Notes: a model not told the origin generated them from the sequence alone. A DNA stretch of 24,000 nt from Spirochaetaceae bacterium (GCA_025356015.1 JANXYO010000119.1:22033-46032), one strand, 5' to 3'; shown: positions 1,739 through 22,628, counted from the first letter of the stretch. Made by a program: numbers and translations.

Positions 1739-3231
1739 TTCTGCCACCAGAAGGCGTTGTCCGCGCCCACCTTCTCGTAGGCTCCTTGCCCGGGCTTCGC
1801 CGTCTCGTTGGCGGCCAGCCAGGCCGAATCAACCCTGATCGCCACGGCCTCGGGCCTGTCGGCCAGATAGCGCTTGAGGAACCTCACCAGCTGGTCCTCC
1901 TTCACCTTGAGACAGTTGCTCTCGTAGCCGAGGAAATAATCGGTCCCGGCGACGGCCCACCAGAAGCTCAGCACATCGGTGATGAACCTGCCCGTGTCCT
2001 CGAGCATGATGGCATTCCGGTCGACGAGCTTGTTTTTGGCGCTCCGCAGGGCGCCGGCGGGGAAGAAGGCCACGGGGTCCCTGGCGACGAGGGCCAGCTC
2101 CTCGTCGAGGGCCAGCCTGAGGCGCTCCGCACGTTCGCCCAGGGGCGCGTCTGTGGCTGGATCCCCAAGCTTGAGGACTGCGGAGAAATAGAAGGTGGAG
2201 CCGTCCCTCGAGGTCGGATAGTGGAAGCTGATGTACTCGGGGTTGAGGAGGTCGGGATCCTTCTTCATGAGGTCGATCTTGAACCTGCCGATGGGCGAGG
2301 CTATGAGGTTGAAGAGGACGTCGGCGATGTAGGTGTCGGAAGCCTGCTTGATGACATCGGGGGCCCGCCAGCGGAACTGCACCTGGGCGAGGCCCTTGTA
2401 GAAGCTGTCATCGGGATAGACGATCTCCACCCTGGAGGCGGCAGGCTCCTGGCCCGCCGTGACGAGGGTCGGGGCGCCTCGTCCCTTCCATTCTCCGAAC
2501 CATCGCTGGGCGAGGGCAAAGACAGCCTCGCTCTCCACGTCGCCACCGATCATGAGAGCCGCATTCTGGGGGATGTACCAGGAGTCGCGGATGGCCTCGA
2601 GCTGGGCGACAGTCGCCCCTTGCACGTTGGACTCCGGGCCGTCGATGTTCTTGCGCCAGGGCGCGAAGGGGAAGACCCGCTTCGTGACCGCGTTTTCCAT
2701 GATCGCGTTGGGGTCGGCATGGACACCGCGGATCTCGTCGAGGACGACCTTCTTCTCGACCTCGAGCTTGGCCTCGTTGAAGACTGGCTTCTCGATTGCC
2801 CATGACCAGAACTCGATTCCCTCGCCGAGCCTCTCGGAGGGAATCGAGATGAAGTAGTTGATGAATTCGTCGCTGGTCGCCCCGTTCCAGTCCGAGGCCC
2901 CGAGCCTGTTGAGGCCCGCCCTGAATGCGGCCTGTGAGGGATACTTCTCGTTCCCGTCGAACATCATGTGCTCGTAAAGGTGGAAAAGGCCCGCGTTCTT
3001 CTCGTCCTGGGCGATCGCCCCGCCCCTGAACACGATGCAGACCGTGGCGAGGGGGACTGAATGGTCGGGCACCACGAAGACCTCGAGGCCGTTGGCCAGG
3101 GTCCTGTGGGCGATGGAGCCTGGGGCCCTGGGCGGCGTCCCCTTCGCCACGCCCTCCTCGGAAGAAAGGTAAGGAGAGGAAAGCCATGCCAAGGCGAGGA
3201 GGATCGCCCCGAGGCGTCCGACCGCCCTCAT
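1735..3231 (-). CDS. M16-family zinc peptidase, catalytic subunit (HxxEH)
   Basis: 498 aa with an N-terminal signal-like segment MRAVGRLGAILLALAWLSS. The inverted zinc-binding motif H-L-Y-E-H sits in GLFHLYEHMMFDGNEKY. Translationally coupled to the downstream inactive paralogue. Confidence 0.9.
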   Translation of the reverse strand: MRAVGRLGAILLALAWLSSPYLSSEEGVAKGTPPRAPGSIAHRTLANGLEVFVVPDHSVPLATVCIVFRGGAIAQDEKNAGLFHLYEHMMFDGNEKYPSQAAFRAGLNRLGASDWNGATSDEFINYFISIPSERLGEGIEFWSWAIEKPVFNEAKLEVEKKVVLDEIRGVHADPNAIMENAVTKRVFPFAPWRKNIDGPESNVQGATVAQLEAIRDSWYIPQNAALMIGGDVESEAVFALAQRWFGEWKGRGAPTLVTAGQEPAASRVEIVYPDDSFYKGLAQVQFRWRAPDVIKQASDTYIADVLFNLIASPIGRFKIDLMKKDPDLLNPEYISFHYPTSRDGSTFYFSAVLKLGDPATDAPLGERAERLRLALDEELALVARDPVAFFPAGALRSAKNKLVDRNAIMLEDTGRFITDVLSFWWAVAGTDYFLGYESNCLKVKEDQLVRFLKRYLADRPEAVAIRVDSAWLAANETAKPGQGAYEKVGADNAFWWQK

Positions 3232-3575
3232 GCCGTGAGGGCCTTCAGGAAGCCGGTCCTGTCTATGAAATTCGTCGCCTTCACGAACTTCCCGCTACGG
3301 TAGTAGCGGACATAGGGGACCTCCCTATTGCCGAAGGTGTCCTCCTTGAAGGCCATAAAGGGCTCGAAAAAGTCCTCGTTGTCATATTCCACAAAGAAGA
3401 TCTCGCGGCCCGGCTCGTCGCCGATCTGCTCGAGATAGGACCGCATCCACTGCCATTGGACGCACCAACTCTGGGTGAGGACAACGGCCACTGCGGGCGC
3501 CGCCCCCGTGATCGATTCCGGGAAGTCACCCTGTTCCACTGCGTCGAGACATTCCTGGGACTTCAGTTTCTTCAC
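3228..3575 (-). CDS. thioredoxin-fold protein with a single Cys (SWCVQW in place of WCxxC)
   Basis: 115 aa. AVVLTQSWCVQWQ followed by a beta-alpha-beta-like pattern resembles thioredoxin or YtxJ-like monothiol proteins. GTG start at 3575 is preceded by AAGGGAG. ATGA overlap with the M16 start (3228-3231). Confidence 0.55.
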   Translation of the reverse strand: MKKLKSQECLDAVEQGDFPESITGAAPAVAVVLTQSWCVQWQWMRSYLEQIGDEPGREIFFVEYDNEDFFEPFMAFKEDTFGNREVPYVRYYRSGKFVKATNFIDRTGFLKALTA

Positions 3576-3640
3576 GCTTGCTCCCTTGCGGCTTCGGATC
3601 GGTCAGGACGCCCAGCGGTTTCGGCCACGCCCCACACGGT

Positions 3641-3669
3641 AGTATAGGCCCTTTGAGGGAAATGGTCAA
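3641..3669 (-). promoter_or_regulatory. sigma70-like promoter for the trx-like/M16/M16 operon
   Basis: Minus strand reads TTGACC-(17 nt)-TATACT, about 60 nt upstream of the GTG at 3575. Confidence 0.5.
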
Positions 3670-3697: not shown

Positions 3698-5323
3698 CTA
3701 GTCCTCACCCATCGAGGGGTGTCGCCAGGCAAGGGGCGGATCGAAATTTTCCTTAACCACGCAGGCGCTTGCCCAGCGGAGGAGGTTCCCCGCAGTTCCA
3801 GCCTTGTCGTTGGTGCCCGAGGCCCTCATCCCGCCAAAGGGCTGCCTGCCAACGACAGCCCCCGTGGGCTTGTCGTTGACATAGAGGTTGCCAGCCGAAT
3901 GCCTGAGGGCCAGTAGGGATGTGGCTATGTCGCGGCGATCACGGGCGAAGACCGCCCCGGTGAGGGCATAGGGCGAGGTCGTGTCGACGAGCCTGAGGGC
4001 CGAGGCGATGTCGCCTTCATCGTAGATGTAGACCGAGAGCACCGGGCCGAATATCTCCTCGCTCATCGCCGCGCAGCGGGGCTCGGCGCAGACCAGGAGG
4101 GTCGGCTCGATGAAGAAGCCCTCGGAACTGTCCCCCCTGCCGCCGGCCAGGAAGCGGCCGCCGGGTCGGACGGCCTCGATGCGGGCCATGATCGCTTCGA
4201 AGGCCGTTTCATCGATCACCGCACCGAGGAAATTGCGGAAATCGGTGACCTTGCCCATGGGAAGGGCGCGGACCTCCTCGGCCAGGCCGTCGAGGAAGGC
4301 CCTCGCTGTCGACTTGGGCACATAGAGGCGGGAGGCGGCCGAGCACTTCTGTCCCTGGTATTCATAGGCCCCCCTGATGATGGCCACTCGTGCGGCCTCG
4401 AGGTCGGCACTCGGATGGAGGAACACAAAGCCCTTCCCGCCCGTTTCCCCGACAATGCGGGGATAGGACCGGTATCGCTCGAGTCCCTCGCCTATCCCCT
4501 TCCACAGACCGCGGAACACCGCTGTCGAGCCGGTGAAGTGAAGGCCAGCGAAAAGGGGATGGGCCAGGACGACTTCCGATATCTCCTTGCCGCTGCCGGG
4601 CAGGAAATTGATGACCCCGGGGGGGAGTCCCGCCTCCTCATAGATCTGCATGAGAACCCAGTTCGAGAGAACCGATGTCGAGGCGGGCTTCCACAAGACG
4701 ACGTTGCCCATGAGGGCGGGGGCCGCGGCGAGGTTCGCTCCGAGGGCGGTAAAATTAAAGGGGCTGACCGCGTACACGAAGCCCTCAAGGGGACGGTAGC
4801 TTGTGCGGTTCCATTCGGCAGGGGCGTCGGCGGGCTGGTCGGCGTAGGCCTCGGCCATGGCGGCGGCCCCGAAACGGAAGAAATCGGCCACCTCGCAGGC
4901 CGAGTCAATCTCAGCCTGGCCCACGGTCTTGCACTGGCCCAGCATCGTCGCCGCGACGATCCGGGCGCGCCGGCTCCCAGACACAAGCTCGGCCGCCCGG
5001 CGGAAGACCGCCGCCCTCTCCTCCCAGGGCAGAGCTTCCCACTCCTGCTTCGCCGCGAGGGCGGCCTCGATCGCGGTCTTGGCCTCGGCAGGGCCAGCGG
5101 CGTGGTAGCTGCCGAGCTCTGTCCCCCTCTCGTCGGGACGGATGATGGGCCGTTTCCGACCCGTCCATACGCTCCTGCCGCCTATCAGGCAGGGGATCTC
5201 TATGCGTGATGCCAGCACTGTCCCCAGCTCGGCCTCGAGAGCTGCGCGCTCGGGGGAGCCGGGAGCATACCCCAGGGCCACCTCGTTCCGGGGGAGGGCG
5301 GGCCTGTATATTGAGTCGTTCAT
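3698..5323 (-). CDS. pruA: L-glutamate gamma-semialdehyde (1-pyrroline-5-carboxylate) dehydrogenase, aldehyde dehydrogenase superfamily
   Basis: 541 aa. ALDH hallmarks are present: VGETGGKGF (catalytic Glu region), EYQGQKCSAASRLYVP (catalytic Cys), FTGSTAVF. Length and N-terminal region are typical of stand-alone P5CDH (PruA/RocA type). Confidence 0.85.
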   Translation of the reverse strand: MNDSIYRPALPRNEVALGYAPGSPERAALEAELGTVLASRIEIPCLIGGRSVWTGRKRPIIRPDERGTELGSYHAAGPAEAKTAIEAALAAKQEWEALPWEERAAVFRRAAELVSGSRRARIVAATMLGQCKTVGQAEIDSACEVADFFRFGAAAMAEAYADQPADAPAEWNRTSYRPLEGFVYAVSPFNFTALGANLAAAPALMGNVVLWKPASTSVLSNWVLMQIYEEAGLPPGVINFLPGSGKEISEVVLAHPLFAGLHFTGSTAVFRGLWKGIGEGLERYRSYPRIVGETGGKGFVFLHPSADLEAARVAIIRGAYEYQGQKCSAASRLYVPKSTARAFLDGLAEEVRALPMGKVTDFRNFLGAVIDETAFEAIMARIEAVRPGGRFLAGGRGDSSEGFFIEPTLLVCAEPRCAAMSEEIFGPVLSVYIYDEGDIASALRLVDTTSPYALTGAVFARDRRDIATSLLALRHSAGNLYVNDKPTGAVVGRQPFGGMRASGTNDKAGTAGNLLRWASACVVKENFDPPLAWRHPSMGED

Positions 5324-5422
5324 CGTATGCGCTGCCTCATATATAGAAGATACACCTCAAGGCCCCCACTTCTACGACACAAAACACGAGAGCCGGGGCC
5401 CGTGATCCGCGAAAAAGTTCCG

Positions 5423-6127
5423 ATGTTGACAAGCCGGGCCTACCGCGCGATCCTGAGGGCCATGAACACCACCACCTTCTTCACCCGCGCCAGCATCGCG
5501 GCCCTGGCCATCGTCCTCATGGCCGCCATCGCCGGCGGAGCCGTGCTCGCCCAGGCCGCTTCGGTCAAGGCGAGCGTCCAGTACCTCGACGGAAACGTGA
5601 AGATCAACGGCAAGCCGGCCGAGATCGGCCAGGCCCTTGGCGCCAAGTTCAGCGTTGAGACGGGTCCGGGCTCTGCCTGCGATGTGGTATTTGGGGGCAG
5701 GAACAGCTTCAGGGTTTCCCAGAATGCCTTCGTCACGGTGGACTTCTCGAAGCGGGCGCCAGAATTCGAGCTCAGGAAGGGTGGCCTTACCTCGGTCCTC
5801 AAAAAGCTCGATGCCATCGCCGGGCAGGACAGCTACAGGGTGCGAACGCCGACGGCGATCGCCGGGGTCCGTGGTACCTCCTTCTGCATCTGGGCCGACG
5901 AGACCTCGACCTATGTCTGCGCCTGCAACGGCACGGTGCGCACCCTGGACGCCAAGGGGGGGCACGAGCTCGGCCTCACTGCCGCCCACCACACGGCCCG
6001 CATCTATTCGGTCGCGAACGGAACGACCAGCGTGGCCGAGGCGGGCGTCCTCCACCACGACGACGCCCTTGTCCAGGCTGTGGCCAACGAGATCGGCTAC
6101 ACGGTGGACTGGACAGTGGCCGACTAG
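5423..6127 (+). CDS. FecR-domain protein with N-terminal membrane anchor or signal
   Basis: Hydrophobic IAALAIVLMAAIAGGAVLAQA, then a FecR-like beta-rich region (VQYLDGNVKINGKPA...RVRTPTAIAGVRGTSF). The track start 5327 would abut the divergent pruA start (5323), so ATG 5423 (or 5462) is more plausible. Confidence 0.65.
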   Translation: MLTSRAYRAILRAMNTTTFFTRASIAALAIVLMAAIAGGAVLAQAASVKASVQYLDGNVKINGKPAEIGQALGAKFSVETGPGSACDVVFGGRNSFRVSQNAFVTVDFSKRAPEFELRKGGLTSVLKKLDAIAGQDSYRVRTPTAIAGVRGTSFCIWADETSTYVCACNGTVRTLDAKGGHELGLTAAHHTARIYSVANGTTSVAEAGVLHHDDALVQAVANEIGYTVDWTVAD

Positions 6128-6180
6128 AGCTCTCGGGACCCTCGATCGGTTCGAGGCCGCCCTCCTCTCGGCCTCGCGGC

Positions 6181-6209
6181 TTGAGCAAAGCTCCGCATGG
6201 GCGTAGACT
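6181..6209 (+). promoter_or_regulatory. sigma70-like promoter for the yjjI operon
   Basis: TTGAGC-(17 nt)-TAGACT. The -10 element ends 10 nt before ATG 6220, and no Shine-Dalgarno is visible in between. Confidence 0.45.
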
Positions 6210-6219
6210 CTAGAGCATC

Positions 6220-7746
6220 ATGGACAGCGCAGAAACCACGATCCGGGACAGGGGCCTCAGTTACCGGCAAAAGGCAGCAGCTCTCGCCCGCCTGGGCGAA
6301 GAGCGCATCGCTCCCTTGCACATCTCGAGGCGGACCGAGGAGCTGCGCTCGGCTCGCGTCGTCTGCGACCTCATGGAAGGGCCAGCCCCCTGGCGTCCGC
6401 GCTACATCCTCCCCGATTACGAGGCCTATTTCCGCAAGGGCTCGGAATTCCTTCGGATCGAGGCTCCCCGCGACCTCCTTGGCGCTGTCTTCGCCCTGCT
6501 CTCGATCTACCGCCAGATCCCCTCGATCACCGGCTATCCCGTCTGGCTGGGCGACCTCGATTCCCTGCTCGAGCCCTTCGCCCTTCCCAACGAGTCTGAC
6601 GGCCTTGCGCCCGAGCAGGACAGGATACTGCGCATGTTCATGGAGCAGATCGACCGCGACCTGCCCGACTCCTTCTGCCACGCAGACCTCGGCCCCCGCG
6701 CCACCCGAGTCGGCAGGGCCATACTCCGCCACCAGCGCGGAGCGGCCCGCGCCGTGCCGAACCTGAGCCTGCGCTATGACAGCGAGCTCACCGAGGACAG
6801 CTTCGCCGAGGAGGCCGCGTCCTGCGCCCTCGACTGCGCCAAGCCGAGCTTCGCCAACCACCGCCTCTTCCAGGCAGACTTCGACGCTCTGGGACTGGGT
6901 CCCTATGCCATTGCCAGCTGCTACAACGGTCTGCCCGTCGGAGGGGGCAGCTGCACCCTCGTGCGCCTCAACCTGGCCGCCTTCGCCTCAAATGCCCGAG
7001 TCAGTGGAATGAGTCCCGAGGACTTCATCTCCGGCCCCCTGGCGGAGGCTGTCGCCTCGGTTCTCGAATACATCCAGGAGCGTGTGCGCTTCGTCATGAG
7101 GGAGTCGGGTTTCTTCGAATCGTCCTTTCTCGCCGCCGAAGGGATCATCGACCCCTCGAGATTCACCGCGATGTTTGGCCTGGTCGGGCTGGCCGAGTGC
7201 GTCAACGCCCTCCTTGCAGGGCGGGGAGCTCGCTTCGGCCACGACAGGGCAGCCGACGAGCTCGGCATGGCGATCCTCGGCGAGATCAACCGCCTGGTCG
7301 CCGCCCACCGCGATCCCAACCTCAAGGCGTCCGGTGGCCGCTACCTGCTCCATGCCCAGGTGGGCATCGATTCCGATTCGGGCGTATCACCGGGCTGCAG
7401 GATTCCCATCGGCGAGGAGCCTCCCCTGCCCCAGCACCTTCTTCGCTCCGCGCCCTTCCACGGACCCTTCGTGGCCGGCACGGGTGACGTCTTCGCCTTC
7501 GAGCCGACAGCCCGCGCCAACCCCGGCCAGATCGTCGATGCTGTGAAGGGTTTCTTCGCCCTCGGCGGCCGCTACTTCTCCTGCTACGCCGCCGACTCCG
7601 ATGTCATCAGGGTCACAGGCTACCTGGTCAAGCGCTCCGAGGTCGAGCGGCTCCGCCACGGCGAGGTCGTGCCCAACGCCTCGACTGTCCTCGGCAAGAA
7701 CGCCATCGACAACCTCAAGGTCCTGGACAGGGCGATCAGGCGATGA
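6220..7746 (+). CDS. yjjI: short glycyl-radical enzyme, YjjI-like family (substrate unknown)
   Basis: 508 aa. The C-terminal DSDVIRVTGYLVKR matches the glycyl-radical fingerprint RVxG[FY] (Gly467, nt 7618-7620), about 40 aa from the C-terminus. Directly followed by, and overlapping, a GRE-activase gene. Size fits YjjI (about 500 aa) rather than PFL-type GREs (about 750-850 aa). Confidence 0.65.
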   Translation: MDSAETTIRDRGLSYRQKAAALARLGEERIAPLHISRRTEELRSARVVCDLMEGPAPWRPRYILPDYEAYFRKGSEFLRIEAPRDLLGAVFALLSIYRQIPSITGYPVWLGDLDSLLEPFALPNESDGLAPEQDRILRMFMEQIDRDLPDSFCHADLGPRATRVGRAILRHQRGAARAVPNLSLRYDSELTEDSFAEEAASCALDCAKPSFANHRLFQADFDALGLGPYAIASCYNGLPVGGGSCTLVRLNLAAFASNARVSGMSPEDFISGPLAEAVASVLEYIQERVRFVMRESGFFESSFLAAEGIIDPSRFTAMFGLVGLAECVNALLAGRGARFGHDRAADELGMAILGEINRLVAAHRDPNLKASGGRYLLHAQVGIDSDSGVSPGCRIPIGEEPPLPQHLLRSAPFHGPFVAGTGDVFAFEPTARANPGQIVDAVKGFFALGGRYFSCYAADSDVIRVTGYLVKRSEVERLRHGEVVPNASTVLGKNAIDNLKVLDRAIRR

Positions 7747-8618
7747 TGGGCCTGGTCCCCGGGCCTGAGGGCGCCGCGGTCCGAGGCGAGGTCGCGCGCA
7801 TCCTTCCCTTTAGTGCTGTGGACGGTCCCGGCAACCGGGGAGTCGTATTCCTCCAGGGCTGCGACTTCGGCTGCGGCTATTGCCACAATCCCGAGACCAG
7901 GATGGCCTGCGCGCTCTGCGGGGCCTGCATCGGCGCCTGCCCCGAATCGGCCCTTAGCGGAGGACCGGGCTCGAGGCCAGCCTGGGACCGGTCCCGTTGC
8001 CGCGACTGCGGCTCCTGCGTGGCCGCCTGCTCCCATGGCAGCTCTCCCAAGGTCAGGAGCATGGAAGCCCGGGAGGCCCTGGACGAGCTCGAGCCTTACA
8101 GGCCCTTCCTGCGCGGGATAACAGTCTCGGGCGGCGAGTGCCTCCTCCAGTCGGATTTCCTGGCCGAGCTTCTTGAGCAGGGAAGGGCTCGGGGCCTTCC
8201 CGGCCTTGTCGACACCAACGGCTCGAGGCCCCTCGCCTCCCTGCCCCGGATCACCTCGGCCGCCGAGGGCTTCATGCTCGATGTGAAGGCCTGGAACGAG
8301 GCCGAGCACATTGCCCTCACCGCCTCGAGCAACTCGACCGTCCTTCAGAACCTCGGCTTCCTCGCCAGACAGGGCTCCCTCTTCGAAGTCCGCACCGTCA
8401 TTGTCCCCGGCTCCTTCGACCTCGAAGAGACGGTGCGCGAGACTTCCGCGGTCCTCGCCGCGGCGCGATCGATGGCCCGCTACCGCCTCATCCGCTACCG
8501 GCCCTGGGGCGTTAGGCCCGAGCGCGCCGCTGCCCTCAGCGAGCCCGACGAGGATCTCATGGCGAGGCTTGCCGCCCTGGCGCTTGCGCAGGGCGCGGCT
8601 TCGGTGCTTGTATCATGA
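7743..8618 (+). CDS. yjjW: glycyl-radical enzyme activating protein (radical SAM), YjjW-like
   Basis: 291 aa. Activase N-terminus SAVDGPGNRGVVFLQGCDFGCGYCHNPE carries CX3CX2C at nt 7860-7883. Two additional ferredoxin-type motifs: CALCGACIGACP (7908-7940) and CRDCGSCVAAC (7998-8030). GGEC SAM-binding-like motif in TVSGGECLL. ATGA overlap with yjjI. Confidence 0.85.
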   Translation: MMGLVPGPEGAAVRGEVARILPFSAVDGPGNRGVVFLQGCDFGCGYCHNPETRMACALCGACIGACPESALSGGPGSRPAWDRSRCRDCGSCVAACSHGSSPKVRSMEAREALDELEPYRPFLRGITVSGGECLLQSDFLAELLEQGRARGLPGLVDTNGSRPLASLPRITSAAEGFMLDVKAWNEAEHIALTASSNSTVLQNLGFLARQGSLFEVRTVIVPGSFDLEETVRETSAVLAAARSMARYRLIRYRPWGVRPERAAALSEPDEDLMARLAALALAQGAASVLVS

Positions 8619-9130
8619 GCATGAAGACGCTCATAGCATATTCGACCCGCTACGGCTCGACCGCGAAGACCGCGGCCCTCCTCGCGCAGACCCTTGCGCA
8701 GACCGATGGCCGGGAAGTGACGGTGGTCGACGCGCGAAGGGTCGATCGTGCCGGGATTGAGACCAATGACAATTTCATCGTGGGCTCCTCGATAGCGATG
8801 GGCCGCTGGAAGCGAGGCGCCTTGAGGCTCATCGAGACTCTCGCCAGGGAGGACAAGCCGGTCGCCGTCTTCGTGACTGCAGGCGGGACCCTCTCTGGCA
8901 GGGAACCGGGGTCGGGAGCCGATGCAGCGCCAAAGGGTTCCCTCGAGGAGCGCGAGGCGGCCGCGGTGTCGCTCTACCTTCGGCCCGTCGTCGATGCTTC
9001 TGGCCTCAGGCCGGTGGCACAGGCGGCTTTCGGCGGACGCTTCGCCTTCTTCGGGAAGCTCGTCCTGGACAACTGGGATCCCGAGCGCGTCCGCCTCTGG
9101 GCCGCGTGCCTTGCCTCGGTGCTCCGCTAG
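8615..9130 (+). CDS. flavodoxin-like domain protein
   Basis: 171 aa. N-terminal KTLIAYSTRYGSTAKTA is the flavodoxin/HemG-like FMN phosphate-binding loop pattern, followed by NFIVGSSI and VAVFVTAGG strands. ATGA overlap with the activase gene. Confidence 0.7.
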   Translation: MSMKTLIAYSTRYGSTAKTAALLAQTLAQTDGREVTVVDARRVDRAGIETNDNFIVGSSIAMGRWKRGALRLIETLAREDKPVAVFVTAGGTLSGREPGSGADAAPKGSLEEREAAAVSLYLRPVVDASGLRPVAQAAFGGRFAFFGKLVLDNWDPERVRLWAACLASVLR

Positions 9131-9132
9131 AG

Positions 9133-9678
9133 ATGGCACTCAAGGCCACGGTCTTCAAAGCCGCCCTCCAGGTGGCAGACCTCGACCGGCACTATTACGC
9201 CGAGCACAGGCTCACCCTCGCGCGCGACAGCTCGGAGACCGATGAGCGCATGATGGTGAGAATCCTGGCCTTCGCCCTCAATGCCGGTGAGGATCTTCTT
9301 ATCACGAGCGACATGAGCGAGACCGAGGAGCCGAGCCTGTGGAGGAAGGACCTCGACGGGCGCATACGGCTGTGGATCGAGGTGGGCCTGCCCGAGCCAA
9401 GGCGTCTCAAGAAGGCGGCCGGCAGGTCAGACCAGGTCCTCCTCTACCTCTACCACGGCCGCCAGGCGCGGCTGTGGTGGGAGGGGAACCGGGCCGAACT
9501 CGAGGGCATCCGTGGCCTCAAGGTCCTCGAGATCGACCAGGAATCGGTACGCGCCCTCGCGGCCCTCGCCCAGAAGACCATGGACCTCCAGGTGACCATC
9601 CAGGATGGCCAGCCGAGCCTGGCCCACGAAGGGGGCATGGTCGAGATACACCTCGCACGGCTGCTTCCGATCATCTAA
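9133..9678 (+). CDS. yaeQ: YaeQ-family protein
   Basis: MALKATVFKAALQVADLDRHYYAEHRLTLARDSSETDERMMVRILAFALNA is the characteristic YaeQ N-terminus. The ATG at 9133 lies 2 nt after the flavodoxin stop. The track's 9106 start would add 9 aa that overlap the upstream gene. Confidence 0.8.
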   Translation: MALKATVFKAALQVADLDRHYYAEHRLTLARDSSETDERMMVRILAFALNAGEDLLITSDMSETEEPSLWRKDLDGRIRLWIEVGLPEPRRLKKAAGRSDQVLLYLYHGRQARLWWEGNRAELEGIRGLKVLEIDQESVRALAALAQKTMDLQVTIQDGQPSLAHEGGMVEIHLARLLPII

Positions 9679-9706
9679 CCGCCACGACATAGTTCCCAAT
9701 AATCGA

Positions 9707-9743
9707 AAAGCCGGAGGAAGCAGTGACGCTTTTCCCCCGGCTT
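9707..9743 (-). terminator. intrinsic terminator hairpin (AOR operon; may also serve the convergent yaeQ)
   Basis: Minus-strand RNA AAGCCGGGGGAAAAGC-GUCACU-GCUUCCUCCGGCUU forms a stem of about 14 bp with an AA bulge, followed by UUUUCGAUUAUU. It lies between the convergent stops at 9678 and 9778. Confidence 0.55.
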
Positions 9744-9755
9744 ATCCTAAGACGC

Positions 9756-9770
9756 CTCCCCCTCGGGGAG
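9756..9770 (-). terminator. short GC hairpin just after the AOR stop
   Basis: CTCCCC-ctc-GGGGAG: 6-bp stem, 3-nt loop, no U-tract of its own. Confidence 0.3.
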
Positions 9771-9777
9771 TGCCAAT

Positions 9778-11928
9778 CTACACGTGTTTTTCCACGACGG
9801 CCAGCACCTCTCCAAGATCCATGCCGATCTTCTTCAGATGCTCCGGAGTCGGCACCCCGTCCTGAGTCCAGCCTCGGCGCTTGAAGACCGCGTCGATCAG
9901 AGATTCGTACTGGGCCTCGCGGTGCTTGCGCATCGCCGCGATCTTGTCCGAGGTCGCCATGCCCGCGGGGTCGATGCCCACCTTCTCCTTGAGCTGCTTG
10001 TCATAGCGCTCGGCTCGGGAGAGGTACTCGTCCTCGGTGACAGGGCCCATGGCGCGGTAGGGCGGATAGTCGTCCACGCGTTTGCCGTGGCCAAGGCGGA
10101 GGTTGAACACCCGCTGGAAGTTGTAGACCCTCTCGCTCTGCCGGATCATGCCTTCCCAGTCGAGGCTTTCCCCGGTGATGGCCGTGTAGAGCTCGCGGTA
10201 GTTGTCGACGTGCTCGGGCACCTTGTTGGGCTCGCTCCATTTCTTGTTGTCGGCCGGCTCGACATCGTTCCAGGGAAGCTTGCAGAGTCCCTGAAGGCCG
10301 AACCAGGTGCGGAACATGGGGAAGTAGTGCAGGGCCTCGGCCTTGTTCTCGAAGGTCGGGATGCGGTTGTTCACCATGTCCATGAAGATCACCCAGGCCT
10401 CGTCGTGCTGGGGTCCCTTGTTCGTGAGGTAATAGCCGCCCTGCTGGGCGAGGGATTCCTTGGAGATGTACTCGCTCTGCTCGAGGCCCTTGCCGTGCAG
10501 GGCGATGTCCTTCATGAGCTGCCTGTCGGCACCGAACTCCCTGGTGAAGTGCTCGGCGAGGAACTTGACGCCCTTACCCATGAGGAGGCCGAAGCCTCGG
10601 CCCTCGGCCAGCTGGTGCATGAGCTCGCAGACCGCCTGCCAGTTGCCCCAGCGCAGGTCTATGCCGCCTGTCCTTTGGGCATTGAGGATGCCGAGCTCCC
10701 AGCACTCCATGAGGAAGCCGCAGGTGGTGCCCACGGAGATCGTGTCGATGCCGTAGGTGTCGCAGTAGAAGTTGATCTCGAGGATGCCGTGGGGGTCCCA
10801 GACGTAGAGGTTCGAGCCACAGCCCGCGGCGGTCTCGTACTCGGGTCCGTCGACGCAGACCTTCTGGCCCTTGTATGGCCCGGTCTCGAGCTCGAACTGG
10901 TCAACGGCATGGGCGCAGGCCATGGTGCAGCCGAACCAGCAGCCGTCGGGGAGGTCCTGGGAGAAGAGCTTCTCCCAGACCCAGGAGGCGATCTCGGGGC
11001 CGCGGGGGTCCTGGCCGTACTTGTGGTTCTTCGTGGGCAGGAGGTCGTAGTCGTTCATGACCTCCATGAGGTGGGCCGTGCCCTGCTTGCGCATCTTGCA
11101 CTGCTTGTCGTCGTTGACGATGATCTCGCGGTGCAGCTTGAGGCCGATGCGCTGGACGGCCGCGGGATCGGCGGCGTCGTTGGAGTTCTGCTCCACGCCA
11201 CGGTAGCGTCCCACGATGGCGCGGATCTTCTTGTTCCGGAGCACGCTGCCGATGCCGCCGCGGCCCGCCTGCTTGACGCGGCAGCCTTTGCGGCGCTTGT
11301 CGAAAAGGGAGAAATTGAGGACACCCATGGGGCTGTGGTCTGCCCCCCGTCCCGCTGATACAACCGAGACCGACTGGAGGTCCTGCTCGTCCTTGGCGAA
11401 GGCTCTGGTGAGGGCCTCGGCGAGGAGGTGGCTGTCCTCGGGCAGGGAGGAGGGGGCCTCGTAGAACTGGACGAGACCCTCGTTGCCATCGATGAAGACT
11501 ATCGTCTCGCGGTCCGCCTTGCCCTGGATCTCGAGGGCGTCGAAGCCCGAGAACTTGAGGTAGGGCCCGAAATAGCCACCGACGTTCGAGTCGATGGGAA
11601 CCCCTGTCATCGGGGAGATGGAGACGACAAGGCTCTTGCCCGAGCCGGGATAGTTGGTGTTCCCGCAGACGGGGCCCATCGCGATCACGATCTCGTTCTC
11701 GGGGCTGTCCCATTTGGTCTCAGGCTTTGTGCCGTCCCAGAGCAGCTTGAGGCCGAAGCCCTTGCCGCCAATGAAGCGCTGCTTCATGTCCTCTGAGACG
11801 GTCTTCTGCTTCGCCGTGCGCGTTCCCACGTCGACGTGGAGGGTCCTCATGTTGTAACCGCGCCTGACCGCGCCCTTCTCGTAGCGCCACTCTGACAGGA
11901 GGGGAAAGTCCTTCTTGGTCGGGCTCAT
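9778..11928 (-). CDS. aor: aldehyde:ferredoxin oxidoreductase family (tungsto/molybdo-pterin) catalytic subunit, long (~716 aa) form
   Basis: The N-terminal domain pattern (MRTLHVDVGTRTAKQKTVSEDMKQRFIGGKGFGLKLLWD...SGFDALEIQGKA) and the overall sequence match the AOR family. Cys-rich DGCWFGCTMACAH region. I prefer start ATG 11928: GAGGAG lies 6 nt upstream and there is an ATGA overlap with the ferredoxin stop. The track's 12003 start would run through the ferredoxin gene. Confidence 0.9.
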   Translation of the reverse strand: MSPTKKDFPLLSEWRYEKGAVRRGYNMRTLHVDVGTRTAKQKTVSEDMKQRFIGGKGFGLKLLWDGTKPETKWDSPENEIVIAMGPVCGNTNYPGSGKSLVVSISPMTGVPIDSNVGGYFGPYLKFSGFDALEIQGKADRETIVFIDGNEGLVQFYEAPSSLPEDSHLLAEALTRAFAKDEQDLQSVSVVSAGRGADHSPMGVLNFSLFDKRRKGCRVKQAGRGGIGSVLRNKKIRAIVGRYRGVEQNSNDAADPAAVQRIGLKLHREIIVNDDKQCKMRKQGTAHLMEVMNDYDLLPTKNHKYGQDPRGPEIASWVWEKLFSQDLPDGCWFGCTMACAHAVDQFELETGPYKGQKVCVDGPEYETAAGCGSNLYVWDPHGILEINFYCDTYGIDTISVGTTCGFLMECWELGILNAQRTGGIDLRWGNWQAVCELMHQLAEGRGFGLLMGKGVKFLAEHFTREFGADRQLMKDIALHGKGLEQSEYISKESLAQQGGYYLTNKGPQHDEAWVIFMDMVNNRIPTFENKAEALHYFPMFRTWFGLQGLCKLPWNDVEPADNKKWSEPNKVPEHVDNYRELYTAITGESLDWEGMIRQSERVYNFQRVFNLRLGHGKRVDDYPPYRAMGPVTEDEYLSRAERYDKQLKEKVGIDPAGMATSDKIAAMRKHREAQYESLIDAVFKRRGWTQDGVPTPEHLKKIGMDLGEVLAVVEKHV

Positions 11929-12329
11929 ACACGCTCCTCTTTGGTGGCGATTTCCAGAGCCTGCTTGGGGCAGGTCTTCACGCAGGCGCCGCAGGCTATG
12001 CACTTGAAGGGGTTCTTGCCGCCGGGATAGTAGCGCATGGCCTCAATTGGGCAGACCGCCACGCATGCCAGGCAGCCCACGCAGAGCTTCTTGTCGATCA
12101 TCACGACGCCCGTCTTGTTGACGCTGATCGCCTGGGTGGGGCACTCGGCGACGCACTTGCGGCATTCCTGGTCGCAGGCGATGAGGTGGAAGGCGCCCTT
12201 CCCGAGCCCGTTCACCTGGATGGCGGACTTGGCGGGGTTTCCCTCTTTGAAGTAGAGCTTGGAGCAGACCGCGGTGCAGGTCGTGCACCCGACGCATTTC
12301 TCGTCGATGGTCTTGAGATACTTGATCAC
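11925..12329 (-). CDS. polyferredoxin with four Cys-cluster motifs (AOR electron-transfer subunit, AorA/YdhY-like)
   Basis: 134 aa with CVGCTTCTAVC, CDQECRKCVAECP, CVGCLACVAVCP and CIACGACVKTCP. GTG start at 12329 is preceded by GGAGG. Confidence 0.9.
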   Translation of the reverse strand: MIKYLKTIDEKCVGCTTCTAVCSKLYFKEGNPAKSAIQVNGLGKGAFHLIACDQECRKCVAECPTQAISVNKTGVVMIDKKLCVGCLACVAVCPIEAMRYYPGGKNPFKCIACGACVKTCPKQALEIATKEERV

Positions 12330-14522: not shown

Positions 14523-14726
14523 GTGACCATCACCCTCAATTTCGCTTCGGAGGCCTTCGAGGAAGCCAGCCTCACCGTCTCAGACATCCTCGCGCGCAAG
14601 CACTGGTCCTTTCCCCTCGTCATCGTAAAGGTGAACGGAGAGGTCGTGGAAAGGTCGGCCTACGCGGAACATGTGGTCAAGGATGGAGACGAGGTGGAGG
14701 CCTACCACCTGGTTTCCGGCGGCTGA
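14523..14726 (+). CDS. thiS: ThiS/MoaD-family ubiquitin-like sulfur carrier protein (C-terminal Gly-Gly)
   Basis: 67 aa ending ...VNGEVVERSAYAEHVVKDGDEVEAYHLVSGG-stop. Length, the VNGE...DGD pattern and the terminal GG match ThiS. GTG start. Confidence 0.75.
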   Translation: MTITLNFASEAFEEASLTVSDILARKHWSFPLVIVKVNGEVVERSAYAEHVVKDGDEVEAYHLVSGG

Positions 14727-14778
14727 TGCCAGGAGATGGGATGGAGAAACCCGCAGCCCAGGAGCCCTTGCCGAGACC

Positions 14779-15183
14779 CTAGTTTCGCTCGTAGACCTCG
14801 ACTATCTCGACGCGGTCGCCCAGGGTTATCCGCACTGGACAGGCCTTGCCAGCGGCGACGACCTTCTGGAATTCCTGGTCGGAGACCACACCCATGATCC
14901 TGTAGGTCACCGTGAGGCGCTCAATCCTCCGGGGCGGGGGGCTCATCTCCTTCACCAGATCGAACTCGATGTTCCTGAGGCCGATGCCGTGGTTGGCGGC
15001 GTACATGTTCATGATCGTGGTGGCGCAGGCACCAAGGGAGATGGCGCAGAGGTCGGTGGGCGAGAAGTTGGAGCCATCGCCGCCATTGTCCTTGGGTGCC
15101 ATCGTGTGGATGACGGAGCCGGATTCGTGGATCAGCTCGACGGTGAAGGTGCCGGTGCTCCGGCCGCGCATGGAAACGCTCAT
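14779..15183 (-). CDS. OsmC/Ohr-family protein
   Basis: 134 aa. FSPTDLCAISLGACATT and the C-terminal KACPV motif carry the two conserved Cys of the OsmC fold. GAGGAGG lies upstream of ATG 15183. Confidence 0.8.
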   Translation of the reverse strand: MSVSMRGRSTGTFTVELIHESGSVIHTMAPKDNGGDGSNFSPTDLCAISLGACATTIMNMYAANHGIGLRNIEFDLVKEMSPPPRRIERLTVTYRIMGVVSDQEFQKVVAAGKACPVRITLGDRVEIVEVYERN

Positions 15184-15229
15184 GCCTTGATTCCTCCTCT
15201 TGACCGCCTAGGGGTCGGCGGGAAAGACG

Positions 15230-15258
15230 ATACTAGCATCATTTGCGCCTTCCCGCAG
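15230..15258 (-). promoter_or_regulatory. sigma70-like promoter for the OsmC-family gene
   Basis: Minus strand reads CTGCGG-(17 nt)-TAGTAT, about 40 nt upstream of the start. Confidence 0.35.
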
Positions 15259-15278
15259 CATATCAGGTCAGCTGCGGG
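15252..15278. promoter_or_regulatory. 8-bp perfect inverted repeat CCCGCAGC-N11-GCTGCGGG in the osmC-like/motA divergent region
   Basis: Arms at 15252-15259 and 15271-15278 are exact reverse complements. The left arm overlaps the putative osmC-like -35 element. Confidence 0.4.
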
Positions 15279-15287
15279 GCCTTTGCA

Positions 15288-15295
15288 GCCGATAA
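15288..15295 (+). promoter_or_regulatory. sigma28 (FliA)-type -10 element candidate upstream of motA
   Basis: GCCGATAA matches the flagellar sigma28 -10 consensus 8/8, about 85 nt upstream of the motA ATG. No TAAA-like -35 element is found at the expected 15-nt spacing. Confidence 0.3.
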
Positions 15296-15332
15296 CCTAA
15301 GGGTGAATGACCCGTCTTCGAGGGGCGGCTCC

Positions 15333-20213: not shown

Positions 20214-20894
20214 ATGAACCCCTTCGGCCCCATCCTTCTCTCCCTCAAGGTGGCGGCGGCGGCGACCCTGATCATCTTCGTGACCGGCCTGGGCTTGGCA
20301 TTGCTGGTCGCCCGCATGCGCAGGCCGGCACGCCGGATCCTGGAAGCCCTGATCCTCCTGCCCATGATCTTCCCGCCGACCATAACCGGCTATCTCCTCC
20401 TCCTGCTTCTGGGTCGGCGAGGCCCAGTCGGCCGATTCCTGGCCTCCCTGGGAGTGGAAACCATCTTCACCTGGGGCGCGGCCGTCATAGCCTCGACCGT
20501 GGTCGCGCTTCCCCTTATGTATCAGAATGCCAAGGCGGCCTTCGCAAACGTCGATCCTGGTTTCGCCCAGGCAGGAAGGACCCTCGGCCTCGGGGAGGCC
20601 CGCATCTTCGCGAGGATCACCCTCCCCCTCGCCGCACCGGGCATCGTCGCGGGCACGGCCCTCTCCTTCGCGAGGGCCCTGGGGGAATTCGGCGCGACAC
20701 TCATGGTCGCCGGGAACATCCCCGGACGGACCCAGACCCTTCCCCTCGCCCTCTACAGCGCGGTTGAGGGAGGAAGAAGCACCGAGGCCAGGCTCTACCT
20801 CGCAGTCACCGTGGGCCTCTCCCTTGCCGTCGTCCTCGTTGTGGGACTCTGCGAACGGAAGCCTTCGCCTCCTCCCGAGGCCAGGCGGGCATGA
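20214..20894 (+). CDS. modB: molybdate (or tungstate) ABC transporter permease ModB
   Basis: 226 aa, closely ModB-like throughout: LLSLKVAAAATLI..., LPMIFPPTITGYLLLLLLGRRGPVG, the EAA loop AQAGRTLGLGEARIFARITLPLAAPGI, and FARALGEFGATLMVAGNIPGRTQTLPLALY. Confidence 0.88.
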   Translation: MNPFGPILLSLKVAAAATLIIFVTGLGLALLVARMRRPARRILEALILLPMIFPPTITGYLLLLLLGRRGPVGRFLASLGVETIFTWGAAVIASTVVALPLMYQNAKAAFANVDPGFAQAGRTLGLGEARIFARITLPLAAPGIVAGTALSFARALGEFGATLMVAGNIPGRTQTLPLALYSAVEGGRSTEARLYLAVTVGLSLAVVLVVGLCERKPSPPPEARRA

Positions 20895-21520
20895 CCCTGA
20901 TCAATTTCGAAAAGGAGCTTCCCCACGCCACGATAAGGACGGCCTTCATCGTCGAGCCAGGCACGACTACGGTCCTGCGGGGCGAGTCCGGGGCTGGCAA
21001 GACGACCATTCTCAACTGCATCGCCGGCCTGGCAAGTCCGGAGCGGGGAGAGATCAGCCTCGAGGGCAGAAGCGTGTTTTCCTCATCAAGCGGGCTCGAC
21101 CTGCCGCCCCGGCTAAGGAGGATCGGCTATGTCTTCCAGCACTACGCCCTCTTCCCCCACCTTTCGGCCCTCGAGAACGTCGCCCTCGCCATGCCGAGGG
21201 AGGGGCGGAAGCGGTCGCTGGAGATCCTCGAGCGCTTCGGCCTCGCCCGCCATGCGAAAAAGCGGCCCGCCCTCCTCTCCGGCGGGGAAAGGCAGCGCCT
21301 CGCCCTTGCGAGGGCACTTGCCGTCGAACCCCGCCTTCTCCTACTCGACGAGCCCTTCAGCGCCCTCGATACCCGGACGAGGGAGGCGACCTGGCGTGAG
21401 TTCCTCGGATACCGCAGCGAGATAGGGGCGGCCGTCATCCTCGTGTCCCACGACCGCCGCGAGGCTGAGATCCTGGGCCACCGGATCATCGAGATCATCG
21501 ACGGATCGGCAATAGAGTAG
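20891..21520 (+). CDS. modC: ABC transporter ATP-binding protein, ModC-like but core-only (no C-terminal TOBE/Mop domain)
   Basis: 209 aa. Motifs: Walker A GESGAGKTT, Q-loop FQHYALF, signature LSGGERQR, Walker B LLLLDEP, H-loop VSHD. ATGA overlap with modB. Confidence 0.8.
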   Translation: MTLINFEKELPHATIRTAFIVEPGTTTVLRGESGAGKTTILNCIAGLASPERGEISLEGRSVFSSSSGLDLPPRLRRIGYVFQHYALFPHLSALENVALAMPREGRKRSLEILERFGLARHAKKRPALLSGGERQRLALARALAVEPRLLLLDEPFSALDTRTREATWREFLGYRSEIGAAVILVSHDRREAEILGHRIIEIIDGSAIE

Positions 21521-21560
21521 CCGCCGTCGCTCCGCTTATGAGTTTCACGGAGGTGTGGAC

Positions 21561-22628
21561 ATGGATTCCGAGCTTATAGCAGTGGTAGCCGAGGGAGCCG
21601 CGAGAACCGCTGCCCTCGTGACCGTACTCGAGATCAAGGGATCGGCGCCCCGGCACGCTGGCAGCAAGATGCTCGTGCGCCCGGGCCATGGCCTGCTCGG
21701 CACGGTCGGGGGAGGCAGGCTTGAGGCCTCTGCCATCGAGGCGGCCGAGGACTGCGCCCGCGCGGGACGATCCGCTCTCATCGAGGTGGAGATGCTTGGC
21801 GAGGCTGCGGTCGGAGCGGACATGATCTGCGGCGGCTCGAGCAGGATGCTCGTGGAGCTGGTCTCGGATCCCCAGCCCTACCGCGCTGCCCGCGACCTCC
21901 TCGCGAGCGGCAAGAGAGCCCTTCTCGTGAAGCGGATCGAGGGAAGGCCGGGCTCCTCCGAATGCTGGATCCAGGTGACGGTCATCGACGAGGACCTGCG
22001 CGCGAGTTCCGGCGCCAGTGTGGCCATCGATGAGAAGGCCGCCCGCAGGGCCCTCTCGACGGGGAAGCCCGTCCTCGCCGATGAGGGCGGGACCTTCTAC
22101 GACCCGATACTGCCCGAGGAGAAGCTGGTCATCCTGGGCGGGGGGCACGTGGGACGCGCGTTGGCCGAAATCGCCCAGAGCCTGGACTTCTCGACCACAA
22201 TCGTCGATGACAGACAGGAGATGGCAGATCCCTCCCGCTTCCCGAAGGGCGTGAGGACAGTCTGCGCATCGGAGGGCTACGCGCCGGCGATCGCTTCCCT
22301 TCCCTTCGACGCCGCCACGTACGCCATCGTCGTGACGCGCGGCCATGTCTACGACCTTGAGTGCATACGAGCGCTGCTCGGGCGGGAATACCGCTATGTG
22401 GGAATGATCGGGTCCTCGCGCAAGACCAGGCTCATCCTCGAACAAGCCAAGGCCGACGGCTTCGACGGCGCGAAGGTTGATGCCCTGTATGCGCCCATCG
22501 GCCTGGACATAGCCGCCGAGACGCCCGAGGAGATCGCGGTCTGCATAATGGGGGAGATCATCGCCGTGCGCAGGAACGCCAAGGCCCTCGAGGGGCTGTC
22601 CGCGCAGCGGGCCGCCAGGAGGGCCTAG
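21561..22628 (+). CDS. XdhC/CoxI-family protein (molybdenum-cofactor insertion/maturation accessory)
   Basis: The N-terminal XdhC_CoxI pattern is ALVTVLEIKGSAPRHAGSKMLV...GTVGGGRLE. The C-terminal Rossmann-like domain is KLVILGGGHVGRALAEIAQSLDFSTTIVDDR. GGAGG lies 7 nt before ATG 21561; the track uses GTG 21555. Confidence 0.8.
   Translation: MDSELIAVVAEGAARTAALVTVLEIKGSAPRHAGSKMLVRPGHGLLGTVGGGRLEASAIEAAEDCARAGRSALIEVEMLGEAAVGADMICGGSSRMLVELVSDPQPYRAARDLLASGKRALLVKRIEGRPGSSECWIQVTVIDEDLRASSGASVAIDEKAARRALSTGKPVLADEGGTFYDPILPEEKLVILGGGHVGRALAEIAQSLDFSTTIVDDRQEMADPSRFPKGVRTVCASEGYAPAIASLPFDAATYAIVVTRGHVYDLECIRALLGREYRYVGMIGSSRKTRLILEQAKADGFDGAKVDALYAPIGLDIAAETPEEIAVCIMGEIIAVRRNAKALEGLSAQRAARRA

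Follow-up and report, generated by a model that had tools for sequence, protein, structure and literature searches.

The members of the superfamily of glycyl-radical enzymes (GREs) share a mode of activation in which a low-potential electron donor, flavodoxin in Escherichia coli, reduces the [4Fe-4S] cluster of an activase, S-adenosylmethionine (SAM) is cleaved, a C-terminal glycine of the enzyme is converted by oxidation into a radical, and catalysis is performed by a thiyl radical on a cysteine. Flavodoxin is the physiological reductant of the E. coli activase PFL-AE, and small flavodoxins encoded at GRE microcompartment loci have been hypothesised to mediate activase reduction as well. YjjI, together with its activase YjjW, is among the glycyl-radical families of E. 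coli that are still without a substrate or a physiological role. An accessory gene conserved with the pair would have been of help as a clue. Here we examine a yjjI locus in a stretch of 24,000 nucleotides from a Spirochaetaceae bacterium (GCA_025356015.1, JANXYO010000119.1:22033-46032; hereafter, the window, by which the whole stretch is meant), in which yjjI and yjjW are followed by genes for a flavodoxin-like protein and for YaeQ, and which had been described, from its sequence, as a fixed four-gene system (hereafter, the original prediction).

What has been reported on YjjI is quickly told. A radical probe labels Gly465 of the E. coli protein in vivo, anaerobic conditions induce the gene in Yersinia, and it has been predicted to be co-regulated with nitrate-respiration genes (PMC3228777). 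The literature still called YjjI uncharacterised in August 2026, in line with the original prediction that the family has no established substrate or role, and the terms "YjjI" and "DUF3029" are absent from a review of the GRE superfamily published in June 2026.

Our analysis leads us to conclude that the locus in the window is probably an ordinary yjjI-yjjW module, to which the flavodoxin-like and YaeQ genes were added in one lineage from the neighbourhood of an aldehyde:ferredoxin oxidoreductase (AOR) gene, rather than being conserved components of a YjjI system.

Four tightly packed genes

The matches of all four genes to profile hidden Markov models (HMMs) of their families exceed chance by far, and their third-position GC content of 0.80-0.86 is the strong bias typical of real genes in this genome. 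Membership of the first protein in the YjjI family, as predicted, was borne out by scores above the curated cut-offs with both TIGR04040 (592.1 bits, cut-off 498.3; residues 4-507 on profile positions 3-497) and PF11230 (606 bits, profile 1-485 of 485); the identity to E. coli YjjI is 40% over 463 amino acids, and an exact-sequence look-up of the protein returned no record. The second protein is, as had been proposed, a GRE activase, and belongs to the YjjW family: it scores 302.5 bits against TIGR04041 (cut-off 250.2) and contains the radical-SAM motif C40x3Cx2C and two ferredoxin-type motifs, C56x2Cx2Cx3C and C86x2Cx2Cx3C.

The flavodoxin-like nature ascribed to the third protein likewise stands. 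Its match to PF12724 (Flavodoxin_5; 41.4 bits, cut-off 27) is limited to residues 6-89; its AlphaFold2 (AF2) model (pLDDT 94.4) matches flavodoxin structures at E about 1e-7, with the highest TM-score, 0.63, for PDB 5veg; and the phosphate loop predicted to bind FMN is intact, with T11, R12, G14 and T16 invariant among the homologues. These homologues are auto-annotated as HemG by JGI, an identity that we reject for the protein in the window given its score of 34.1 bits against a cut-off of 142 for the equivalog model NF008316, with only residues 3-76 matched. The fourth protein matches PF07152 over its full length (223.8 bits, profile 1-172 of 173), confirming its assignment as YaeQ; an alternative GTG start is open upstream in this frame, at 9106. 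YaeQ has the PD-(D/E)XK fold and no assigned function, and the literature holds no link between it and radical enzymes.

All the coordinates of this tightly packed group of plus-strand genes were reproduced (Table 1): ATGA overlaps join yjjI to yjjW (7743-7746) and yjjW to the flavodoxin-like gene (8615-8618), and a 2-nt gap (9131-9132) precedes yaeQ. A reading of the four genes as an anti-phage defence locus was discarded after PADLOC gave no meaningful match for any of the four proteins.

Table 1. Positions of the genes, proposed signals and codons of interest in the window
Feature	Position	Strand	Remarks
Proposed promoter, weak candidate	6181-6209	+	TTGAGC, 17-nt spacer, TAGACT
yjjI	6220-7746	+	508-aa open reading frame (ORF), YjjI-family GRE
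Cys49 codon	6364-6366	+	Cys in 81/81, including E. coli
Cys234 codon	6919-6921	+	Candidate thiyl-radical cysteine; C-Y-N motif invariant in 81/81
Cys245 codon (TGC)	6952-6954	+	Earlier thiyl candidate, rejected
Gly467 codon (GGC)	7618-7620	+	Glycyl-radical site in RVTGYLV; invariant in 81/81
yjjW	7743-8618	+	291-aa ORF, radical-SAM activase
Flavodoxin-like gene	8615-9130	+	171-aa ORF, PF12724 Flavodoxin_5
yaeQ	9133-9678	+	181 aa counted from ATG, PD-(D/E)XK-fold protein
GC-rich hairpin	about 9705-9746		Convergent gap between yaeQ and the AOR gene
AOR-family (tungsten-type) aldehyde:ferredoxin oxidoreductase and its own poly-ferredoxin	9778-12329	-	Ferredoxin gene at 11925-12329

Gene neighbourhoods of yjjI

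For the comparison of gene neighbourhoods, species-representative genomes were scanned for yjjI and the best 80 of more than 592 relatives were retained. Directly 3' of yjjI lies yjjW in 79 of 82 loci, and no flavodoxin-like or YaeQ gene was found within ~6 kb of yjjI in any of the 82 loci other than the window. Searches with tblastn using the flavodoxin-like and YaeQ proteins of the window retrieved nothing in 84 loci, nor did profile HMMs of the two families match anything in the six-frame ORFs (983 kb) of 82 loci; the window's own genes, which served as the positive control, were recovered at E = 4e-77 and 1e-89. In the three closest homologues encoded on long contigs (68-71% identity), the yjjI-yjjW pair stands alone, and E. 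coli K-12, too, has a bare pair, located between yjjV and the divergent deoCABD operon, as the original prediction had it when denying E. coli a flavodoxin partner.

When the neighbouring genes were clustered, a third gene cluster was never found in more than 10 of the 80 species, and the minor clusters look, as read from their sequences, like regulators, transporters and housekeeping genes. None of the 25 Pfam families most often met in the 39 tightly packed same-strand neighbours is a flavodoxin family, and the sole packed neighbour that recurs by Pfam is a regulator of the Crp/Fnr type (7 loci). Thus, across 80 species, yjjI-yjjW behaves as a self-contained two-gene module without a recurrent metabolic neighbour.

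The complete four-gene arrangement was found in the window and in one further contig, a Logan contig (L085) that is 100% identical in the aligned parts of all four proteins and presumably comes from the same organism. The fixed architecture of the original prediction therefore failed to recur in surveys started from the YjjI, flavodoxin and YaeQ sides alike, the partial exception being a yjjW-yaeQ junction, without the flavodoxin gene, in L113. Because the flavodoxin-like and YaeQ genes are found beside yjjI only in this lineage, they offer little insight into the function of YjjI.

Two observations on other yjjI loci may be recorded here. The Crp/Fnr regulator (cNMP_binding plus HTH_Crp_2) is encoded just 5' of yjjI on the same strand, at about 5270-5990, in L062, L064, L065, L066, L067, L069 and L077, that is, in Romboutsia and relatives and in an Oceanispirochaeta; its position fits oxygen- or redox-responsive control of yjjIW. 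In a Cetobacterium (L082), arrays of tRNA genes bracket the yjjI-yjjW pair (5600-5925 and 9261-9684), a possible sign that the two genes are mobile as a cassette.

Neighbourhoods of the flavodoxin-like gene and of yaeQ

The homologues of the flavodoxin-like protein form a small family of 31 matches, with the best non-self match at ~60% identity, and none of yjjI, yjjW and yaeQ was found near them in any of 26 other loci. What does lie nearby in three of these loci (L087, L088 and L092), at a distance of 2-3 kb and in the same convergent orientation as in the window, is an AOR orthologue (77-80% identity). The closest relative found, the Rectinemataceae metagenome-assembled genome (MAG) that contributes L113, lacks the flavodoxin-like gene between yjjW and yaeQ. 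In the nucleotide alignment, window positions 7809-8614 correspond to L113 1-806 and positions 9133-9607 to L113 826-1300; the break falls exactly at 8614/9133, so the 516 bp of the flavodoxin-like gene form an indel with exact boundaries between the yjjW stop and the yaeQ start, their place in L113 being taken by a 19-nt spacer (807-825) containing AAAGGAG. No other gene in the window has a third-position GC content as low as that of this gene (0.80), yet the value overlaps those of its neighbours (0.81-0.90), so composition neither supports a foreign origin of the gene nor polarises the indel. Given its distribution, the gene is marked as an apparent opportunistic passenger, not a defining component of the YjjI system.

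Orthologues of YaeQ (74-85% identity) adjoin AOR or lie close to it in L112, L113 and L114; in L114 and L116, they have DUF4139, MFS and CheX genes nearby. The gene order in L113 is yjjW (80% amino acid identity), the 19-nt spacer, yaeQ (82%), UPF0114 and AOR (93%); there is no UPF0114 gene between yaeQ and AOR in the window, where the two are separated by a convergent gap of 99 nt. More generally, the AOR neighbourhood is prone to rearrangement in the relatives, with flavodoxin, YaeQ, DUF4139, CheX, MFS and UPF0114 genes coming and going. Both extra genes are syntenic with the adjacent AOR locus.

This synteny lends itself to a different interpretation, namely, that the flavodoxin-like protein, and perhaps YaeQ, belongs in function to the AOR region, as a low-potential electron carrier, and joined the yjjIW transcript only through loss of intervening genes. 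The proximity of the flavodoxin homologue to AOR in L087, L088 and L092 would suit such a role, as would that of yaeQ, which adjoins AOR in L112 and L113, is near it in L114 and ends 99 nt from it in the window. Yet the flavodoxin-like gene is never part of the AOR operon, being on the opposite strand with other genes in between; AOR has a ferredoxin gene of its own; L086 and L089 carry a homologue of the flavodoxin-like gene with no AOR within the 6-kb flanks; and the synteny is confined to close relatives, so shared ancestry may suffice to account for it. We therefore regard a carrier function in AOR metabolism as improbable.

The alternative closest to the original prediction is a dedicated radical-enzyme system of four genes, in which the flavodoxin-like protein is the specific one-electron donor of YjjW and YaeQ is tied to the YjjI reaction. 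The junctions between the genes are of the translational-coupling type and a single transcription unit is plausible; the flavodoxin fold and the FMN loop are intact; flavodoxin is the known reductant of PFL-AE and has been hypothesised to play the corresponding part in GRE microcompartments (PDB 5veg); and the adjacency of yjjW and yaeQ is seen in L113 as well. This association is, however, missing from the 82 other yjjI loci, from the three nearest long-contig relatives, from E. coli and from all 26 other loci of flavodoxin homologues; L113 lacks the flavodoxin-like gene at exactly this junction; YaeQ orthologues occur beside AOR without yjjIW in L112, L114 and L116; and YaeQ has no known connection to radical chemistry. 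On balance, a dedicated system of this kind seems unlikely.

Without being a dedicated partner, the flavodoxin-like protein could plausibly supply the activating electron to YjjW in this organism, by analogy with FldA and PFL-AE of E. coli. That the co-translated Flavodoxin_5 protein is a genuine, dedicated reductant of the YjjI system in this spirochaete lineage, possibly acting on the YjjW cluster, is a minority view to which we give limited weight and, more speculatively still, it might serve during turnover as the reductant of a reductase chemistry like that of NrdD, in which the invariant Cys49/Cys234 pair would be employed (see below).

Fold of YjjI

The AF2 model of YjjI, built on an alignment of 25 sequences, is of good overall quality by its own measures (pLDDT 83.6, pTM 0.87). 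A Foldseek search of the PDB with this model gave 102 matches at E <= 0.001; those listed as the best 50 are, without exception, class III ribonucleotide reductases (NrdD) or PFL-type GREs, which confirms the GRE fold of YjjI: the predicted structure has the ten-stranded alpha/beta barrel that NrdD and PFL share, in keeping with the barrel anticipated for the first gene. The top match is NrdD of P. copri (E = 1.4e-16, TM 0.70), the TM-scores with T4 NrdD are 0.70/0.66, and the NrdD matches overall span E = 1e-16 to 1e-13 and TM 0.62-0.70; next in the Foldseek order come PflD, PFL, the diol and hydroxyproline dehydratases and CutC. On the strength of the model, YjjI looks like a stripped-down, NrdD-like barrel, and its nearest structural relative is predicted to be class III ribonucleotide reductase, not PFL.

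This kinship is barely detectable by sequence searches alone. A profile search of the PDB by sequence yielded only a marginal NrdD match (E = 0.028) and no solved structure of YjjI, and the score of YjjI with the Pfam NRDD model, 17.7 bits, is under the gathering threshold of 26.2. We do not place YjjI in the ribonucleotide reductase family.

The sole low-confidence stretch of the model (pLDDT < 50) comprises residues 382-392 (window positions 7363-7419 encode residues 382-400). It is directly followed by a highly conserved motif, SPGCRIPIGEEP, in which R394 and E400 are invariant, and may be a mobile active-site loop. As to gene context, in E. coli K-12 (L118 6681-13603), yjjI is divergent from deoCABD, the operon for nucleoside and deoxyribose catabolism, and yjjG, for a pyrimidine 5'-nucleotidase, is nearby; together with the NrdD-like fold this context is suggestive, and it may be coincidence.

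Active site of YjjI

In an alignment of 81 YjjI sequences, one from the window, one from E. coli and the rest from 79 species loci, R464, G467, Y468, C49, C234-Y235-N236, R249, R394 and E400 do not vary in any sequence, and T466 is conserved in 79. The glycine of the RVTGY motif, the codon of which had been placed correctly, is Gly467, the homologue of E. coli Gly465; it sits at the tip of the hairpin E462-465/E468-471 in the AF2 model, and its motif lines up with RITGYLV of NrdD in a sub-threshold HMMER domain.

The thiyl-radical cysteine fared differently. The original prediction had singled out Cys245, with the right location for its codon; only 9 of the 81 homologues have Cys at this position, against 50 with Tyr, while E. 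coli has Ser, and the position lies in the middle of a strand (E242-251), so we rejected it. The best candidate appears to be Cys234, which we propose because the C-Y-N motif is invariant, because in the model the residue occupies the tip of a beta-hairpin (E229-233/E236-239), and because an hhalign alignment of the YjjI profile with E. coli NrdD, of a probability of only 19%, places Cys384 of NrdD within ~8 residues of it; in the same alignment the YjjI strand TLVRLNL is paired with GVISLNL of NrdD. By analogy with NrdD, Cys49 is possibly a second active-site or redox cysteine. Two other cysteines, Cys153 and Cys393, are replaced in E. coli YjjI, with Met and Ala, respectively.

The same conservation bears on the notion that YjjI of the window is a relic, non-radical or degenerate, with the glycine motif kept by ancestry alone. 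No YjjI with a demonstrated activity or an electron paramagnetic resonance signal is on record in the literature, as one would expect of a relic. Against this, the glycine loop, the cysteine hairpin and many other residues are invariant across the 81 species-level sequences, an intact, dedicated activase is almost always encoded next to the enzyme, the radical probe did label Gly465 of E. coli in vivo, and yjjI does respond to anaerobiosis in Yersinia. We give the relic interpretation hardly any credence.

If YjjI and YjjW operate as PFL/PFL-AE and NrdD/NrdG do, the [4Fe-4S] cluster bound by the CX3CX2C motif of YjjW would be reduced to the 1+ state and would cleave SAM to the 5'-deoxyadenosyl radical, which would take a hydrogen from Gly467, at the tip of YjjI's C-terminal hairpin. 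In turnover, the radical stored on this glycine would move to Cys234, rather than Cys245, at the tip of what would be the facing hairpin, and the resulting thiyl radical would attack the YjjI substrate; Cys49 may serve as a second redox cysteine, as in NrdD.

Several points weigh against our preferred view of an ordinary module with lineage-specific additions, and against the details attached to it. The surveyed loci are the best-scoring matches and lean to Clostridia and Spirochaetota, so that the survey speaks for these rather than for more distant YjjI clades, such as those of enterobacteria and Pasteurellaceae. The yjjW-yaeQ junction does recur in L113 and may reflect function, not shared ancestry. 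The ATGA overlap between yjjW and the flavodoxin-like gene and the 2-nt gap before yaeQ are typical of functionally coupled operon genes, so some selection for co-expression at the level of the lineage is conceivable. The NrdD profile alignment behind the placement of the cysteine loop has, as mentioned, only 19% probability.

Transcription signals

The original prediction placed the four genes behind a single promoter at 6181-6209. On direct reading this element agrees with the consensus at 8 of 12 positions, a weak match not shown to exceed chance, and a scan of positions 5900-9900 with a threshold of 9/12 found no sigma-70-like site at all; furthermore, the -10 hexamer, TAGACT, ends 10 nt ahead of the yjjI ATG, so no space is left for a ribosome-binding site. 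We accordingly do not uphold this promoter.

Within the operon, no terminator was detected beyond chance level. The convergent gap between yaeQ and the AOR gene contains a GC-rich hairpin with AAAA at its 5' flank and TTAT at its 3' flank, and the minimum free energy of the surrounding segment (9672-9785) is -34.1 kcal/mol (z = -2.8 versus shuffles). The hairpin is a probable bidirectional terminator and is consistent with a 3' end of the yjjI-yaeQ transcription unit at this point. With the ATGA overlaps, the lack of internal terminators and the hairpin after yaeQ, co-transcription of the four genes in this genome is plausible.

A search of the window for riboswitches and other leaders returned only three sub-threshold matches to miRNA models, none of them credible, and no riboswitch was detected 5' of yjjI in 11 diverse loci scanned. 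A T-box leader (125 bits) in L033, at 8499-8748, is located just 3' of yjjW and presumably controls the next gene rather than yjjIW.

Surroundings of the locus

The nearest named relatives are MAGs of Rectinemataceae and Spirochaetaceae; one Rectinemataceae relative is GCA_035702285.1. The flanks of the locus are ordinary: genes for two M16 peptidases, a P5C dehydrogenase and a protein with a FecR domain occupy one side; the other has the AOR-type oxidoreductase with its ferredoxin, a histidine kinase, MotA/MotB, TatC and PadR and, farther out, an ABC transporter, XdhC and an MFS transporter. Positions 20214-22628 encode an ABC permease/ATPase pair together with a maturation factor resembling XdhC, possibly a set for tungsten or molybdenum cofactor supply. 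Two ORFs have no Pfam match, at 14671-15300 (209 aa) and at 3186-3647 (153 aa).

The FecR-domain gene is found 5' of yjjI in the window (5327-6127), yet 3' of yjjW in a Spirochaetaceae relative at 71% identity (L004 10538-11257 and L005 8538-9257), and the P5C dehydrogenase gene is upstream in both. Because the former gene changes sides and the latter stays in place, the yjjIW pair must have shifted relative to its neighbours.

Implications

The window locus is, in sum, an ordinary member of the YjjI family with a lineage-specific extension of the operon, and neither gene context nor riboswitches in the loci surveyed provided a lead to the substrate of YjjI. What is new for the family is the candidate role of Cys234, the NrdD-like fold predicted for YjjI, and the behaviour of yjjI-yjjW as a two-gene module. 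In practical terms, the operon could be used as a co-expression construct with a candidate reductant included and, should the flavodoxin-like protein turn out to be a dedicated reductant, it would provide a self-contained form, open to reconstitution, of an enzyme that in E. coli has defied characterisation.

Comparison with known systems

The closest described system is YjjI/YjjW of E. coli (b4380/b4379), which belongs to the same families, TIGR04040/TIGR04041 and PF11230 (formerly DUF3029). The E. coli enzyme shares with that of the window the glycine motif VTGY, the C-Y-N hairpin and the equivalent of Cys49, and its activase is likewise encoded directly downstream; unlike the locus in the window, the E. 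coli operon includes neither a flavodoxin nor a YaeQ gene.

Class III ribonucleotide reductase, NrdD, is the best fold match to YjjI and has a weak sequence link to it through Pfam NRDD. The two have in common a cysteine hairpin that is followed by an xLNL strand and a second conserved cysteine towards the N-terminus. Nevertheless, the identity is only 12-14%, and YjjI lacks the ATP cone and the C-terminal Zn-ribbon cysteines of NrdD. The activases differ as well: YjjI has one of the PFL-AE/YjjW type, which carries two auxiliary clusters, whereas NrdD uses NrdG.

With the PFL/PFL-AE/FldA system, the shared feature is the activation logic, in which a reduced [4Fe-4S] cluster cleaves SAM and a glycyl radical, then a thiyl radical, is formed; the folds of the PFL family match that of YjjI significantly. 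However, PFL is ~250 aa longer than YjjI and carries a Cys-Cys pair. The flavodoxin-like gene of the window is of the Flavodoxin_5 type and is apparently co-transcribed with the enzyme and the activase, in contrast to fldA of E. coli, which is not known to be linked to pfl.

A precedent for having the gene of a small flavodoxin next to those of a GRE and its activase is the flavodoxin of GRE microcompartment loci (PDB 5veg). That protein is a short-chain flavodoxin of the Flavodoxin_1 type from a locus that encodes shell proteins, and the role in activase reduction has been proposed for the whole class of such loci; the association in the window, by contrast, was found in a single lineage, and there are no microcompartment genes. 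Finally, HemG, the menaquinone-dependent protoporphyrinogen oxidase, has PF12724 and a similar N-terminal phosphate loop in common with the flavodoxin-like protein described here.

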